Assembly: GCA_017991415.1 (NCBI GenBank)
Contig: JAGOQR010000004.1
Span: 17,549 to 81,548, forward strand
DNA from: Candidatus Magasanikiibacteriota bacterium
GTDB lineage: Bacteria > Patescibacteriota > Patescibacteriia > Magasanikbacterales > GWA2-37-8
DNA: 64,000 nucleotides
Direction of reading: 5' to 3'
The position numbers and the translations under genes were made by a program. Below the pieces are notes generated by a model that saw nothing but the letters and a program-made list of their open reading frames with translations, was not told where the DNA came from and ran no database searches. This document shows, piece after piece, positions 2,982-15,429 of the stretch. Position 1 is the first letter of the stretch, and each line of letters begins with the position of its first letter.

Positions 2982-3668
2982 TTATTGGTTGGTGGTAGTG
3001 GTTGATTCGGTTTGGAGGTTAACGGTGAGAACAGCATATTCGGCGCCTTGTCCTGATGGGCCTTGTACATACATAGAGCCTGTAATTGTATCTTTGCTAA
3101 AAGAAAATTGTCGTACATTTTCTCCTTCACTTTCCACATCAATCGTAAAACCTTTGTTTTTTAATTCAGTTTTATAGTAGCCAATAATAAAAAACGGATC
3201 AGCGTTGAGTTTTTTCCATTCTATTTGTACGGTATCACGATGGTCGCTTACGGGTGCGCTAATCATTTTCCAAGCACTGGCTACGGTGTTGAGTTTGTTA
3301 TTTTCTTCTTTATTTTGAGGGCTTTTGTCTAAAGTGAGGAGAAGGGGAGATAAGATTATTTTTGGAAAAAAAGCAGCAATTTCGATACCGCGATTTTTAT
3401 ATTTTCCAGAAATAAAGGTAATTTGTTCGATACTATCTTTGTCATACACAGGAATTTCTTCGGGAAAGTTGTCTGGGACACTGGCCAGAGTTTCGGGACC
3501 GCTACCAAGCGCAAGACGGATAAAAATAATTATGCCAATAATAATAAAAACTAAACAACCGCAACCAGTAAAACAGGCTCGTTTGATAGCGGAGAAAGCA
3601 GAATATTTTTTGGTTAGCTCGCCAATTGGCGGTTCAACTATTTCGACACTGTCTAGATTTCTGCGCAT
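2982..3668 (-). CDS. Hypothetical membrane-anchored protein (single N-terminal TM)
   Basis: 228 aa ORF with a hydrophobic stretch CLVFIIIGIIIFIRLALG near the N-terminus. It is tightly packed against murJ; no family recognised. Confidence 0.5.
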   Translation of the reverse strand: MRRNLDSVEIVEPPIGELTKKYSAFSAIKRACFTGCGCLVFIIIGIIIFIRLALGSGPETLASVPDNFPEEIPVYDKDSIEQITFISGKYKNRGIEIAAFFPKIILSPLLLTLDKSPQNKEENNKLNTVASAWKMISAPVSDHRDTVQIEWKKLNADPFFIIGYYKTELKNKGFTIDVESEGENVRQFSFSKDTITGSMYVQGPSGQGAEYAVLTVNLQTESTTTTNQ

Positions 3669-3886
3669 ATTGATTTAGCAAAATCACGCCGTGCAATGTC
3701 CGTTGAAGCGCGACGTTTAGTGAAACTATTGTAGCAGAAAATCTTATTACTGGATAGGTTCAACTTAAGATGATTTTGTGTCGTCTTGACGTTTTTTAAC
3801 TTTTAAGGTATGTTCTGCTTTATCTCTGGTGCACGTTGCTCCAGTAGATAATGGCTCTGTAGGAAAGTTCGAGGTTCGAAATCAGT

Positions 3887-4318
3887 ATGAAGAAGAACAT
3901 CTTGCGTGTCGTGTCGGTTGCGTTGCTCTTCGCCGCCGTCCTGTTGGTGGCAGCCTGCGTCGAGCAGGCGGGGGGTGACATGGGTTTCGTCACCCAGGCG
4001 ATCACGAACGAGGAGGCTAGGTCCGACATCGAGAAGGCCTACGAAGGAGGGGATCTCGGTTCGGCGACGGTCGAAGTGAAGACCCCGCCCAAGGACAGCC
4101 ACTACCTCACCGGCGACGTGTGGGTCATCGGTTGGAGCAGCGCCAGCAAGCAGGTCTGCGACATGCGAACCCGCACGTGGGCGACCGAGGTCAACTTCGG
4201 CATCCTGTGCTACCGGCTGTCCGCCCTCTGTTGCAACACGATCCACCCCTACCCGAACTCGCCGCCGATGGCGTACTGCGACGTCTACAAGCTGGAGTGC
4301 TACCCCGCCATGTGGTAG
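3887..4318 (+). CDS. Cysteine-rich small lipoprotein, compositionally foreign (GC-rich)
   Basis: 143 aa. Signal peptide plus lipobox MKKNILRVVSVALLFAAVLLVAAC, with 7 further Cys in the mature part. Codons are GC-rich (GCC, GTC, CTG, CGC), unlike every neighbouring gene. Confidence 0.6.
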   Translation: MKKNILRVVSVALLFAAVLLVAACVEQAGGDMGFVTQAITNEEARSDIEKAYEGGDLGSATVEVKTPPKDSHYLTGDVWVIGWSSASKQVCDMRTRTWATEVNFGILCYRLSALCCNTIHPYPNSPPMAYCDVYKLECYPAMW

Positions 4319-4378
4319 TAGTTTGCTGGGCGTTAAAACCCAGCAAAAAACTACCGAGCATGCAGGAGCCTTACAACA

Positions 4379-4447
4379 GGCCGCCTACATGTTCATTATT
4401 TTTTACTTAAATGTAGAAGTTAATGAACAGGCGGTCTTTTGTTTTTG
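4379..4447 (+). terminator. Putative rho-independent terminator after the GC-rich lipoprotein gene
   Basis: Arms ccgcct..gttcatt (4381-4397) and aatgaac-aggcgg (4422-4434), followed by tcttttgtttttgg. The loop is long, which weakens the call. Confidence 0.45.
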
Positions 4448-4501
4448 GAAAATTTACTCTTTCTCTGCTATACTTAATTTTATCTTAATAAATCTAAGTT
4501 T

Positions 4502-5851
4502 ATGAAATTATCTTTTTTTGGGGCAGCGGGCGAAGTTACTGGTTCATGTAGTATGTTCACCGTGGGTGAAGATGCCTTTTTGGTAGATTGCGGTATGTTT
4601 CAAGGCGAGCAAACCAAAGAAGTAAAAAATAAAGAATCCCTTCCTTTTAATCCCGCTGAGTTAAAAGCGGTTATAATTACTCACGCCCATCTCGATCATG
4701 TCGGTCGTTTACCTGTGCTCGTTAAAAATGGCTATGAAGGGCATTTTTATGCTACAGCACCTACTATAGAGTTGGCCGAACTTATTCTGGAGGATGCGCT
4801 GCATATTATGATCTATAACCATCGCCACTCAGGCGCAGAATTGTTATATGATTCAGAAGACATTGCGCGCGTGATGGAAAGGTTTAAGCCTGTTGCTTAT
4901 AAAGAAAAATTTTCATTAACCCCTACTGTTGCTTTTACGCTGCATGACGCAGGTCATATTTTTGGTTCTGCCTTTGTAGAAGTAGAGGCAGAAGGCAAGC
5001 GAGTAGTATTTTCTGGCGATGTGGGAAATGCTCATGTGCCGATCTTAAAGGATACGGAACCATTGCCAAAAGATATAGATCTGCTGGTCTGTGAATCTAC
5101 GTATGGAAATCGTTTGCACGAAACAACGAGTAAGCGTCAAGAAATCCTTACTACTCTTATTTCCGAAGCAATTGCTCGAGGAGGAGTCCTTATGATCCCA
5201 TCTTTTTCTTTGGAAAGAACGCAAGAGCTAATTTATGAACTAAACAATCTGGTAGACCGTCAGCACGTGTTGCCTCGTATTCCTATTTTTTTGGATAGTC
5301 CGCTGGCTATTAAAGCAACCAAAGTGTATTTAAAGTATCCAGAGTATTATGATGCTGAAGCAGAAAAATTATTAAAAAATGGTGATGATTTATTTGATTT
5401 TCCAGGCTTAGTAATGACCGAAACAAAAGAAGAATCAAAAAAAATTAATCAAACTCCTGGTCCAAAAATTATTATTGCTGGTTCTGGTATGATGAATGGT
5501 GGCAGAATTTTGCATCACGCCATTCGTTATTTATCAGACAAGAAAAATACGTTATTAATTATTGGGTATCAATCTGAAGGTACGCCTGGAAGAAAAATTT
5601 TAGATGGTCATTCGCCTGTTGAAATTATGGGAGAACGAGTAGCGGTCAATTGCCAAGTAAAAGCGATAGGTGCTCTTTCAGCTCATGCTGATCAGGAAAA
5701 ATTGCTGGCTTGGATTGGGAGTGCTAAACCAAAAAAAGTAGTGCTTAATCACGGTGAAAAAAATGTTGCTGAAGTTCTAGCCAACAAATTACAAGGAGAG
5801 TTTGGGATAGAAGCTATACCTGCAGATTTTGAGCAAGAAATACAAATTTAA
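4502..5851 (+). CDS. beta-CASP family MBL-fold ribonuclease (RNase J / CPSF-like RNA-metabolising metallo-beta-lactamase)
   Basis: 449 aa. HxHxDH motif HAHLDHVG, then later D/H motifs, and the C-terminal beta-CASP motif SAHADQEKLL. Confidence 0.75.
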   Translation: MKLSFFGAAGEVTGSCSMFTVGEDAFLVDCGMFQGEQTKEVKNKESLPFNPAELKAVIITHAHLDHVGRLPVLVKNGYEGHFYATAPTIELAELILEDALHIMIYNHRHSGAELLYDSEDIARVMERFKPVAYKEKFSLTPTVAFTLHDAGHIFGSAFVEVEAEGKRVVFSGDVGNAHVPILKDTEPLPKDIDLLVCESTYGNRLHETTSKRQEILTTLISEAIARGGVLMIPSFSLERTQELIYELNNLVDRQHVLPRIPIFLDSPLAIKATKVYLKYPEYYDAEAEKLLKNGDDLFDFPGLVMTETKEESKKINQTPGPKIIIAGSGMMNGGRILHHAIRYLSDKKNTLLIIGYQSEGTPGRKILDGHSPVEIMGERVAVNCQVKAIGALSAHADQEKLLAWIGSAKPKKVVLNHGEKNVAEVLANKLQGEFGIEAIPADFEQEIQI

Positions 5852-7786: not shown

Positions 7787-7801
7787 AATTTATTAATTTA
7801 A

Positions 7802-7832
7802 AAAAATCCCTCTGAGTCAGAGGGATTTTTTA
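7802..7832 (+). terminator. Strong rho-independent terminator
   Basis: aaatccctct-gagtc-agagggattt followed by ttttatt. Confidence 0.8.
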
Positions 7833-7893
7833 TTAGCTTTTAATATGATATACTAATAGTAAATCATATTTACCATAGTCTGTATAAATTGGT

Positions 7894-13959: not shown

Positions 13960-15429
13960 TTACATTGGTGGATCTGCTAATCCGTGGCTAGGACTAAAAG
14001 CTGATTTTGGTTTGAGTGCTGGTGGTATAGCTGGAACAGGCGCAGCGGTGTTTGCATTATTATATTGGGTAGAGATACTTCGAAATGAAGCACGCTGTTC
14101 ATCAAAAAATGTGCGTACCATGCCAGTTGGACCGTTACGGTGTTTGGCGATATGAATTTCGGCAATATTTTTTTCGTCTGGAGGAATGTCCTCGGGTCGG
14201 TAGTTACGATCTGCAGCTTTTCGGTAGATAAATAATACCACATCCGCATCCTGCTCGATAGATCCAGATTCGCGCAAGTGAGATAGTTTAGGGATAGCTG
14301 GTGTGCTTGCTTCTACCGTACGAGAAAGCTGTGACAGGGCAAGTACAGGTATGTTTAATTCACGAGCAATACCTTTTAAACCTCTGGTAATTTCGGCAAT
14401 TTCCTGTACACGGTTTTCTATGCTACCACGAGATTCCATAAGCTGTAAGTAGTCGATAACAAGTAGACCAAGCCCATGCTCCATTTGCAGGCGTCGAGCT
14501 TTGGTGCGGATCTGCATGATGTTATTGTTAGGAGCATCATCAATAAAAATAGGCGCTTCTGAAAGCACACCCATAGCATGTCCGATACGAGGAAAATCAT
14601 CATCTTCTGGCCTGTCGCTTAAGCGGCCAGTGCGCATTTTCCATAAGTCTACATTAGCTTCGGAACAGAGTAGGCGGTCTACGAGCTGCTCTTTACTCAT
14701 TTCCAAAGAAAACAATCCGACGGATACTTTTCGTTTTACACCCACGTGTCGCACAATATCGAGGGCAAAAGAGGTTTTACCGACACTTGGGCGGGCAGCC
14801 AAGATAATAAGGTCAGATTTTTGAAAACCAGCAAGCAGAGCATCTAAATCGGGGTAGCCAGTTGGAACACCGCGCAATTGCCCTTTGTTTTTATGAAGTT
14901 CATCTATTCTATCAAAGGCATCATTTAATACGCTTCGAATCGGGCTAAAGGTTTGTTTCATGTAGTTTTGTGAAACGCCAAATAGCTCTCTTTGCGCTTG
15001 GTCAAGGAGGGTGTCTAGTTCTTCGTTTTCTTCGTATCCGAGCTTGGAAATTTCGTGAGCTGCGCCAAGTAAACGGCGTCTCGTAGCTTTTTTATGAACA
15101 ATGTTAGCGTAATTTACAACATGTGCTGCCGTAGGTACGGTATTGGTAAGGGAGACAAGATAGCTATAACCACCAGCCTGTTCTAGTTGGTTTTTTTCTG
15201 CTAACCGATTGCTGAGTGTAAGAAGATCGATTGGGTCATTTTTTTGATATAGTTCCAAAATAGCTTCAAAAATTTTGGCATGGGCATTTTTATAGAAATC
15301 TTCTGACTGAACAATGTCAGCAATTTTAAGCATGGCATCTTTATCTAGCAAAACAGAGCCCAAAAGAGACATTTCAGCTTCCAGGCTTTGAGGTGGAACT
15401 TTTTCCAGTTGCGTAATGTCTTGACTCAT
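13960..15429 (-). CDS. dnaB: Replicative DNA helicase DnaB (with Pro-rich C-terminal tail)
   Basis: Walker A ARPSVGKTSFAL, GLFSLEMS, RecA-like fold, and an N-terminal DnaB domain. Confidence 0.95.
   Translation of the reverse strand: MSQDITQLEKVPPQSLEAEMSLLGSVLLDKDAMLKIADIVQSEDFYKNAHAKIFEAILELYQKNDPIDLLTLSNRLAEKNQLEQAGGYSYLVSLTNTVPTAAHVVNYANIVHKKATRRRLLGAAHEISKLGYEENEELDTLLDQAQRELFGVSQNYMKQTFSPIRSVLNDAFDRIDELHKNKGQLRGVPTGYPDLDALLAGFQKSDLIILAARPSVGKTSFALDIVRHVGVKRKVSVGLFSLEMSKEQLVDRLLCSEANVDLWKMRTGRLSDRPEDDDFPRIGHAMGVLSEAPIFIDDAPNNNIMQIRTKARRLQMEHGLGLLVIDYLQLMESRGSIENRVQEIAEITRGLKGIARELNIPVLALSQLSRTVEASTPAIPKLSHLRESGSIEQDADVVLFIYRKAADRNYRPEDIPPDEKNIAEIHIAKHRNGPTGMVRTFFDEQRASFRSISTQYNNANTAAPVPAIPPALKPKSAFSPSHGLADPPM

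Follow-up and report, generated by a model that had tools for sequence, protein, structure and literature searches.

A variable slot for GC-rich genes encoding cysteine-rich lipoproteins in AT-rich Magasanikbacteria

Under the model of Lawrence and Ochman, a compositionally atypical gene that a genome has acquired reportedly ameliorates over time. This report concerns a gene of atypical composition, encoding a cysteine-rich lipoprotein and rich in guanine plus cytosine (GC), in an AT-rich Candidatus Magasanikbacteria metagenome-assembled genome; it lies in a stretch of 64,000 nucleotides (nt), hereafter the window, of contig JAGOQR010000004.1 (positions 17,549 to 81,548; assembly GCA_017991415.1). 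Among described systems, its locus calls to mind the minimal mobile elements of Neisseria which, in the outline of them that PMC3787668 gives after Saunders and Snyder (2002), consist of a variable region between conserved flanking genes, contain no mobility genes, and are exchanged by homologous recombination in the conserved flanks. It also recalls the vls cassettes of Borrelia, which stand at 49% GC in a genome of 28.6% GC, an excess that is left unexplained apart from the invocation of 'strong selective pressure' (PMC11499132).

We hold it highly probable that the gene is real and that it occupies a variable cassette slot exchanged by recombination. As far as the outline of the Neisseria elements goes, the slot resembles them in occurring in filled, empty and alternative states, in its mosaic flanks and in cassette types that are uncoupled from flank phylogeny, and in having no transfer RNA (tRNA) gene, flanking repeats or mobility gene. 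In contrast to those elements, the unit of exchange is smaller than the intergenic region, with a frame of promoter and 3' untranslated region (UTR) bracketing a variable 5'UTR and coding sequence (CDS). Most cassettes are moreover of one kind, namely Cys-rich lipoproteins with an extreme and uniform GC content at third codon positions (GC3), and natural transformation can here only be inferred. The likeness to the vlsE and vlp/vsp systems of Borrelia lies in hypervariable, putatively surface-borne lipoproteins encoded in an AT-rich genome at one expression site with upstream and downstream homology. However, there is no sequence homology to these systems, the variation is seen between strains and species and not within a clone, and the GC excess is larger (63-69% versus 38-46%) and falls mainly on third positions. 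A slot resembling a minimal mobile element and holding a variable surface lipoprotein is a known kind of locus, occupied here by a new protein family; the unusual part is the uniform GC3 of ~0.9 among diverged alleles confined to AT-rich genomes. Full-text literature searches returned no description of such cassettes in the candidate phyla radiation (CPR).

The open reading frame (ORF) in question spans positions 3887-4318 of the + strand (432 nt, 143 amino acids (aa); accession MBP6859872.1). The first-pass annotation, drawn from the letters of the sequence, had described it as a GC-rich islet with GC-rich codon usage in an AT-rich genome, and both observations are borne out. Its GC content is 63.0%, against 38.1% for the whole window, with values of 0.535, 0.451 and 0.903 at the first, second and third codon positions (GC1, GC2 and GC3). 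The sliding-window and codon comparison that had been proposed sets it clearly apart from the host genes: across windows of 432 nt (mean GC 0.381, standard deviation 0.035) the islet forms the single maximum, 0.639 at position 3901, ~7.4 standard deviations above the mean. The 51 other long ORFs of the window have a GC3 of 0.307±0.038 with a maximum of 0.389, and relative to them the islet ORF has z-scores of 15.6 for GC3 and 11.2 for total GC, with a mild shift at GC1 (1.2) and GC2 (2.6). Its codon choice is the inverse of the host's, with AAG used in 7 of 7 cases (host 15%), ATC in 6 of 6 (host 16%), TTC in 3 of 3 (host 10%), TAC in 7 of 7 and AAC in 5 of 5. The GC-rich tract extends from about 3895 to 4345 and is essentially the CDS alone. 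The flanks had been thought to be of intermediate GC content, a description that does not hold for the upstream spacer (3669-3814, 0.356) or for positions 4373-4501 (0.287); GC is raised only in the 5'UTR (0.458) and in the 54 nt that follow the stop codon (0.481). A slightly raised GC content just upstream of the islet is due to a spacer element, AAATCACGCCGTGCAATGTCCGTTGAAGCGCG (3681-3712, + strand; 32 nt, ~55% GC), which is unique in the window, lies outside the GC-rich gene body, and has relatives at the same position in two of the related loci described below, L113 (two tandem copies) and L090. Elsewhere in the window, the only other 1-kb bin with raised GC (0.446) is 14001-15000, inside a 489-aa ORF on the - strand (13960-15429), and it falls below the islet threshold.

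A chimeric assembly junction, the artefact that the first-pass annotation had kept in view, is excluded because independent assemblies of four samples (L001-L004, four other members of the islet protein's 90% cluster) cross both junctions, matching window positions 3165-5133 at 91.5-99% identity with the same AT-rich flanks. In assemblies of five more samples (ERZ1292623, ERZ1292617, SRR32696702, SRR14092396 and SRR14092385) the same two neighbours likewise enclose homologous GC-rich genes. The tRNA T-loop-like motif GGTTCGAAATC, which had been suggested as a remnant of an integration site, is indeed present at 3873-3883, but as a remnant it fails: the window contains one hit at up to one mismatch where 1.15 are expected, the motif overlaps the Shine-Dalgarno sequence GAGG and is not conserved in relatives, and ARAGORN detects no tRNA or transfer-messenger RNA in the 64 kb. 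A tRNA-linked integrative island was rejected on these grounds and on the absence of direct repeats, there being no significant flanking direct repeats, target-site duplications or att repeats around the slot. The slot holds a single ORF and within it no transposase or integrase, and no integrase is evident next to it, although intI was not searched across the whole contig.

The islet is a functional protein gene, as judged from its strong three-base periodicity, its conserved lipobox and Cys pattern, and purifying selection in one frame only (a ratio of nonsynonymous to synonymous divergence, dN/dS, of 0.3-0.5 across five strain alleles in the + frame alone). Codons 1-23 constitute a signal peptide with K2, K3 and R7, and the lipobox LFAAVLLVAAC, ending in Cys24 (codon 3956-3958), fits the PROSITE PS51257-type pattern, in which a basic n-region and a hydrophobic core precede [LVI][ASTVI][GAS]C and the Cys falls at position 15-35, in keeping with the earlier description of a lipobox-containing secreted protein of 143 aa. 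The same pattern is met by the slot proteins P0006 and P0008 and by those of L008 and L010, all introduced below. The earlier count of seven extra cysteines has to be corrected, as seven is the total: beyond the lipobox Cys there are six in the mature part, spaced C-x16-C-x6-CC-x14-C-x6-C. Most changes between strains fall in the signal peptide, and the Cys domain at the C-terminus hardly varies. From strain to strain the lipoprotein is hypervariable; inside the family the N-terminal linker module and the Cys scaffold are conserved. The mature product would be a domain anchored by lipid and exposed at the surface of a monoderm CPR cell, probably with three disulfides; AlphaFold2 models are of low confidence, with predicted local distance difference test scores of 46.8 from the strain alignment and 38.8 from the family alignment.

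The protein has no significant match in Pfam, NCBIfam, PHROGs, PADLOC or the PDB sequences, the weak hits covering the signal peptide only. At the RNA level, Rfam has no hit at E ≤ 1 over positions 3000-5200, none in the whole window that reaches the gathering thresholds, and no meaningful one in the relatives. The homologue search that had been called for returned two proteins. A word-indexed search of 5.8 billion clusters recovers the protein's own cluster only; an exhaustive HMMER search over 1.84 billion representatives adds one protein, P0006 (140 aa, 9 Cys, 32% identical), from Hainich groundwater and Logan assemblies of public runs; and a profile search over the 5.8 billion clusters adds P0008, from Logan assemblies, which has 153 aa and shares 65% identity with P0006 and 32% with the window protein. 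All six mature cysteines of the window protein are conserved in both. Both genes are GC-rich (GC3 0.88 for P0006 and 0.91 for P0008) in AT-rich contigs, and both sit in the same slot as the islet, with the start of mem228 upstream on the opposite strand and the β-CASP gene downstream.

Related loci were gathered through these two flank genes. The left one, mem228 (2982-3668, - strand), encodes a 228-aa membrane protein without a Pfam family and is transcribed away from the slot; its homologues (51-87% identity) mark the left border in 30 or more related loci. The right one (4502-5851, + strand) encodes a β-CASP metallo-β-lactamase-fold nuclease of 449 aa (Pfam Beta-Casp 1.3e-41, RMMBL, Lactamase_B), and its orthologues mark the right border. 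The two genes are adjacent and divergent in 34 of the 34 related loci that retain both. In distant relatives (mem228 51-64% identical) only an AT-rich spacer of 93-165 nt separates them, and the empty sites L009, L013 and L089 have a gap of the same 93-165 nt; the gap is 764-942 nt in the window locus, L005, L008, L010, L011 and L090. The empty slot is the ancestral state, and the comparison with relatives suggested at the outset shows the islet segment to be an insertion relative to a 93-165-nt spacer between the same two neighbours.

Within the close clade (mem228 69-87% identical) the slot may be empty, or may hold extra non-coding DNA (L091), an ORF of ~175 aa, or a GC-rich gene for a Cys-rich lipoprotein, and at least three mutually unalignable genes of this last kind occupy it. 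The lipoprotein of L008 and L092 (120 aa, 13 Cys, GC3 0.88) and that of L010 (122-135 aa, 9 Cys, GC3 0.96) cannot be aligned by BLASTP with the window protein or with each other; hhalign links only the N-terminal mature module of the L010 protein to the window family (probability 82%, E 1e-5) and leaves that of L008 unlinked. The ORFs of ~175 aa (L011 3354-3899, equivalent to L088, and L090, reverse-complemented, 3090-3599) are homologous to each other, encode 169-181 aa without a signal peptide or a family match, and have a GC3 of 0.49-0.55, moderately above the local background. In addition, inverted repeats resembling miniature inverted-repeat transposable elements (for example GTCATTCCGA...TCGGGATGAC) and other short palindromes separate the cassette or empty slot from the β-CASP promoter, at L005 ~905-1010, L008 ~3905-3985 and L091 4181-4436, and also in L098, L015 and L012; the spacer serves small elements in general as a landing site. 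On a point of nomenclature, many GTDB representative records titled 'uncultured Gammaproteobacteria bacterium', including L008, L010 and L013, carry the Patescibacteria-type gene order MurJ-mem228-β-CASP-MraZ-RsmH and appear to be mislabelled.

The conserved frame around a variable core is seen in L005 and L008, the closest pair by their flanks (β-CASP N-terminus 90% and mem228 N-terminus 97% identical). Their promoter regions are 90% identical, as are, at 80%, their GC-rich 3'UTRs with terminators (~185 nt); between these blocks, from the -10 element or transcription start to 20-45 nt past the stop codon, the two CDSs have no similarity. Homology between cassettes stops at the -10 element or transcription start. 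L114 matches L008 at 98.8% identity beginning 22 nt past the L008 stop codon, yet it contains an unrelated CDS, that of P0008 and not the 120-aa gene. The left flank of L113 is 96.8% identical to L005 but only 88-91% to L008; the flanks themselves are mosaic. The terminator of the window locus is ~78% identical to that of the unrelated L010 cassette, and a post-stop motif, CATGGGGC.GT.CGCC.ACAAGGCGGAC, is shared by L005, L114 and L010 and is present in degenerate form at window positions 4360-4385. Further motifs of the common frame are CATGGGGCNGTNCGCCNACAAGGCGGAC, GTCGGGCNNNNNAGCCTGACCACC and GCRCGTTGCTCYAG.

The 3' part of the frame is a GC-rich, multi-hairpin 3'UTR element of ~170-185 nt that follows unrelated lipoprotein CDSs in L005 (715-900), L008 (3705-3890) and L114 (561-750). 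Its counterpart in L010 (3706-3860) is of different sequence, is equally structured (z -6.6) and shares the post-stop motif. No Rfam match was found for the element, and the distinct sequences are too few for covariation analysis; it could be a recombination arm or a functional RNA. A DNA pattern built on it matched a viral contig of 68% GC (L115), a candidate that was rejected: the match falls within coding sequence and the similarity does not extend beyond it, and by our own estimate from pattern length and collection size about one chance match is expected.

The empty site L009 retains a remnant of the L005/L008 terminator, which suggests that it is empty by secondary loss. The flanks of the window locus are 77% identical, yet it carries the L005-type family, and the nearest neighbours L005 and L008 carry different cassettes; cassette type does not follow flank phylogeny. 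A mosaic is also seen among strains, for example in L001-L004, which show mem228 at either 100% or 89.8% identity and the CDS at either 97.9-99.5% or 94.4%. The fixed frame, the swappable core, the mosaic flanks and the uncoupling of cassette type from flank phylogeny argue for exchange by homologous recombination: after DNA uptake, recombination in the common frame and the flank genes would add, remove or exchange cassettes, and no dedicated mobility gene would take part.

The window locus itself can be read from left to right as follows. The left edge of the slot is a spacer motif conserved in filled and empty loci alike, TATTGTAGCAGAAAA (3727-3741), which probably holds the -10 region (TACAAT, minus strand) of a mem228 promoter. 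A sigma-70-like promoter of the lipoprotein gene follows at 3786-3814 (+ strand; TTGACG, 17-nt spacer, TATGTT), with a TTGACA promoter at the matching relative place in L005, L008, L010 and L113. The 5'UTR (3815-3886, + strand) includes the Shine-Dalgarno sequence at 3871-3874 and a motif, GCACGTTGCTCCAG, that recurs in the 5'UTRs of L113 and L005 in the shared form GCrCGTTGCTCyAG. The start of the transcript (3810-3823) is 86% complementary to the region of the start codon (3887-3900; ATGTTCTGCTTTAT / ATGAAGAAGAACAT), a pairing that could occlude the start codon. Both of the hairpins noticed after the stop codon in the first reading are real. The first (4314/4322-4347/4355, + strand; -14 kcal/mol, z -4.5) has a GCTGGG...CCCAGC core, and the same stem, read by eye, also closes the 3'UTR elements of L005 and L008, which is suggestive. 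The second (4373-4455, + strand) has a stem at 4373-4442 (-33 kcal/mol, z -7.6) followed by UCUUUUGUUUUU and is the intrinsic terminator of the cassette. At the right edge of the slot lies the promoter of the right flank gene (4445-4474, + strand; TTGGAA, 18-nt spacer, TG-n-TATACT), together with a sequence conserved in filled and empty loci, TTTGGTATACTT. The genes around the islet are ordinary core genes, encoding MurJ, the mem228 product, the β-CASP nuclease, MraZ, RsmH, an FtsL-like protein and a Clp ATPase. Compared with NCBIfam, the β-CASP neighbour scores 418 bits against the Cas14 type VII CRISPR model, for which the cut-off is 800, and 326 bits against the archaeal aCPSF1 model, for which it is 580. 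These scores make it an aCPSF1/Cas14-like β-CASP nuclease and not an RNase J.

The pattern of substitution bears on the origin of the GC-richness. The synonymous divergence (dS) is 0.65 between P0006 and P0008 and ~1.0 between the window gene and P0006, and GC3 stays at ~0.9 throughout. Third-position differences within the G/C class (strong to strong, S<->S) and between classes (strong to weak, S<->W) stand at 30:41 in the cassettes and at 68:832 in host genes (p = 7e-14), a comparison restricted to codons for the same amino acid and based on small samples. Similarly, 17 of 92 G/C sites in the cassettes are A/T in the partner; for the flanks, the same genomes give 42 of 68 (p = 2.5e-8). If GC3 were decaying to the host value of 0.31 in a two-state process, it would have fallen to ~0.76 at (u+v)t = 0.35 and to ~0.55 at 1.0. 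Because GC3 has been kept at ~0.9 despite large dS, and in view of the substitution spectrum, the lipoprotein family has diverged under a GC-preserving regime and not under the resident AT-biased one. Within the species, synonymous differences are all S<->W transitions, 8 to 0 (unpolarised). The UTRs of the variable unit are GC-rich as well.

Two further ideas about the composition were tried and rejected. Biased gene conversion is at odds with the sharp borders of the tract and with the lack of a GC3 halo in the flanking genes, the first 50-codon bins of both neighbours being host-like at filled and empty loci alike. A G skew of the kind seen in vls is absent: the GC skew of the cassettes (0.63-0.69 GC) lies between -0.05 and +0.05, and G runs are no commoner than C runs.

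A second GC-rich islet is found in relatives, between an ftsL-like gene and a gene for a 117-119-aa membrane protein (L008 7741-8380, equivalent to L116 9941-10580, and L010 7381-7841; - strand); the matching spacer of the window (7787-7893) is empty. One GC-rich islet is thereby counted in the 64-kb window and two in the 20 kb of L116. The ORF of this second islet, P0007, encodes a non-secreted 139-aa orphan, with a GC3 of 0.86-0.93 and a GC-rich 3'UTR. Between L008 and L010 the second islet has a dS of 0.43 and a nonsynonymous divergence (dN) of 0.24, against a dS of 1.8-3.5 and a dN of 0.04-0.19 in adjacent core genes, and at sites that are G or C in both, its G<->C divergence of 0.136 is on a par with the 0.123 of the flanks. 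These numbers fit either a later transfer between lineages or co-divergence with synonymous sites confined to G/C.

The explanation that we narrowly prefer, and to which we give about an even chance, is that the islet is a self-contained accessory lipoprotein cassette in a variable slot, with a GC content that derives from an unsampled high-GC gene pool. The family or its founder would have come from that pool, the founder would have been captured behind a native promoter, and its alleles would then have circulated among related Magasanikbacteria. In its composition at all three codon positions the islet resembles a gene of a ~65% GC genome: the cassettes have a GC1 of 0.53-0.58, a GC2 of 0.45-0.55 and a GC3 of 0.88-0.96, and a comparison set of long genes with GC3 0.8-0.9 from sampled high-GC loci has a GC1 of 0.645 and a GC2 of 0.41-0.45. 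Amino-acid composition was set aside as a discriminator, the slightly low GC1 and slightly high GC2 fitting a high-GC protein rich in Cys, Thr, Ala and Gly. With a classical acquired islet the locus shares atypical GC content and codon usage, sharp borders, presence or absence relative to an empty ancestral site, and an orphan product; what sets it apart is that, across several species, a single site repeatedly holds diverged alleles of one family as well as unrelated genes alike in kind and composition, with no decay series and no donor. The recent acquisition from a high-GC donor that the first-pass annotation had proposed is upheld as regards insertion and foreign-like composition, but no donor has emerged, and slot homologues at 32% identity still have a GC3 of ~0.9. 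The finding named there as contrary to acquisition, homologues only in AT-rich relatives of matching composition, is likewise seen in part: the homologues are confined to AT-rich relatives, but their composition is unlike that of those relatives. For an ultimately foreign, high-GC origin of the family, taken by itself, we consider the scales to be level.

Several observations weigh against a high-GC source. Outside the slot no homologue of the family was found by HMMER over the 1.84 billion representatives or by profile over the 5.8 billion clusters, and no donor homologue by scans of IMG/VR proteins or by tblastn against INPHARED phages and PLSDB plasmids. The product of the second islet is an orphan too, without a match in Pfam, PHROG, PADLOC or Rfam or a homologue in the 5.8 billion clusters. 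Repeated entry from outside is hard to envisage because a high-GC genome should be without homology arms for the slot. A single origin of the locus, followed by diversification inside Magasanikbacteria, is indicated by what the cassettes have in common, namely an AT-rich promoter, a 5'UTR motif, an N-terminal module and the 3'UTR; diversification inside AT-rich genomes should have eroded GC3 towards 0.3. Seven of seven GC-rich alleles nevertheless lie at a GC3 of 0.86-0.96 without intermediates, a narrow range that looks like an equilibrium rather than a series of decay snapshots. Finally, the account draws on steps that we infer from sequence patterns, namely competence and recombination, by which cassettes would be exchanged homologously after natural transformation, and the whole function of the product, which may be a recognition molecule in host-cell contact or a target of phages, competitors or antagonists, and which may be under diversifying or frequency-dependent selection.

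The rival that survives best, which we regard as possible though tentative, is that the GC-richness is maintained in place: the locus would have arisen once in this clade, alleles would have diversified in AT-rich genomes, and the transcription unit would have been held at a GC3 of ~0.9. The holding force, proposed with the same reserve, would be selection on the transcript or the DNA, or a locus-specific process acting against the mutational bias. This would account with fewer coincidences for the distribution of the family, which is confined to this slot, for a frame that is homologous between cassettes whose CDSs are unrelated or 32% identical, for the range of GC3 (0.86-0.96 despite a dS of 0.65 to ~1 between alleles), and for the second islet. 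S-to-W changes are more than 7-fold scarcer than in host genes, albeit in the small samples behind the substitution spectra, and the limits of the GC-rich tract are the transcription start or start codon on one side and a point short of the terminator loop on the other. The second islet occupies the same site in L008 and L010 with a dN of 0.24, close to the 0.16-0.19 of its flanks, and a dS of 0.43, against at least 1.8, although later transfer between lineages explains its low dS equally well. The vls cassettes offer a precedent (49% GC in a genome of 28.6% GC; PMC11499132), but one marked by a GC skew and G-run clustering that are missing here. More generally, no gene-specific force of such a kind is known; sharp borders with no halo leave no room for biased gene conversion; and translational selection is unlikely, given that the GC-richness extends to the UTRs and that GC3 stays at or below 0.39 in all 51 host genes. 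In a broader form of the same idea, to which we give about the same probability, the slot and at least one further islet would represent a resident class of hypervariable GC-rich accessory genes, and not foreign genes in transit; held at a GC3 of ~0.9, they would show a gene-specific equilibrium of base composition that recalls the GC-richness of the vls cassettes and is more extreme.

We consider it improbable that the slot is an expression site for antigenic variation within the genome, fed by gene conversion from silent GC-rich copies. Unrelated lipoprotein families do follow one promoter, the homology blocks in the promoter and 5'UTR upstream and in the ~170-nt 3'UTR downstream are conserved, and GC-rich genes in an AT-rich genome are what is seen at vls; moreover, contigs bearing a GC-rich archive would drop out of a composition-based bin. 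In the vls system, however, silent cassettes that lack promoters and are ~90% identical to the expressed one lie side by side in an array, and here no silent archive was found in collections of 15 billion proteins. In these collections, which include unbinned contigs of the same samples, there is no paralogue, and the members of the family all lie in the slot. The number of islets (one in 64 kb here, two in 20 kb of L116), the variation between strains rather than within an assembly, and the lack of the coding-strand GC skew of ~0.5 and the clustered G runs that characterize vls tell against it as well.

A single recent transfer, private to this genome, from a high-GC donor such as a host is less credible again. 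The extreme GC3 and the empty sites in relatives would be expected of it, and the 8:0 ratio of S<->W synonymous differences is compatible with early decay; but in other species this slot holds diverged homologues, in steps of 32% and 65% identity, or GC-rich lipoproteins that are unrelated, the gene is older than the strain divergence of 6-10%, and no donor was found. Slighter still is the case for a site-specific cassette system with the structured 3' element as its recombination site. Like integron cassettes, unrelated CDSs are here followed by a conserved structured 3' element, and the same sites are reused across species. In an integron, however, cassettes are promoterless ORFs in arrays, with an intI gene nearby, and attC is an imperfect palindrome with RYYYAAC...GTTRRRY cores, whereas the element described here is multi-hairpin by eye and shows no such cores to the eye, no pattern search having been run; the cassette stands alone, with its own promoter and terminator and not in an array, and neither an integrase next to the slot nor flanking repeats are in evidence.

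GC-rich islets in AT-rich genomes are often RNA genes, and the mRNA of the islet does fold more stably than its shuffled versions (z -4.8), but an artefact, or a GC-rich structured RNA gene in place of a protein gene, is scarcely credible given the agreement of independent assemblies, the lack of an Rfam match at E ≤ 1, and the periodicity, conserved lipobox and cysteines and one-frame purifying selection described above.

Members of the CPR, or Patescibacteria, are thought to live attached to other cells, and their surface contact molecules are almost unknown. A slot that swaps small disulfide-rich lipoproteins is a candidate source of such a contact or target molecule, and one that can be traced in metagenomes, where composition-based quality control of bins can discard islets of this kind as contamination. 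The pattern of the slot also indicates that uncultivated CPR organisms exchange cassettes by homologous recombination. If the cassettes were imported repeatedly, an abundant high-GC partner gene pool would still be unsampled; if their composition were maintained in place, they would be one of the rare bacterial examples in which base composition is controlled gene by gene.

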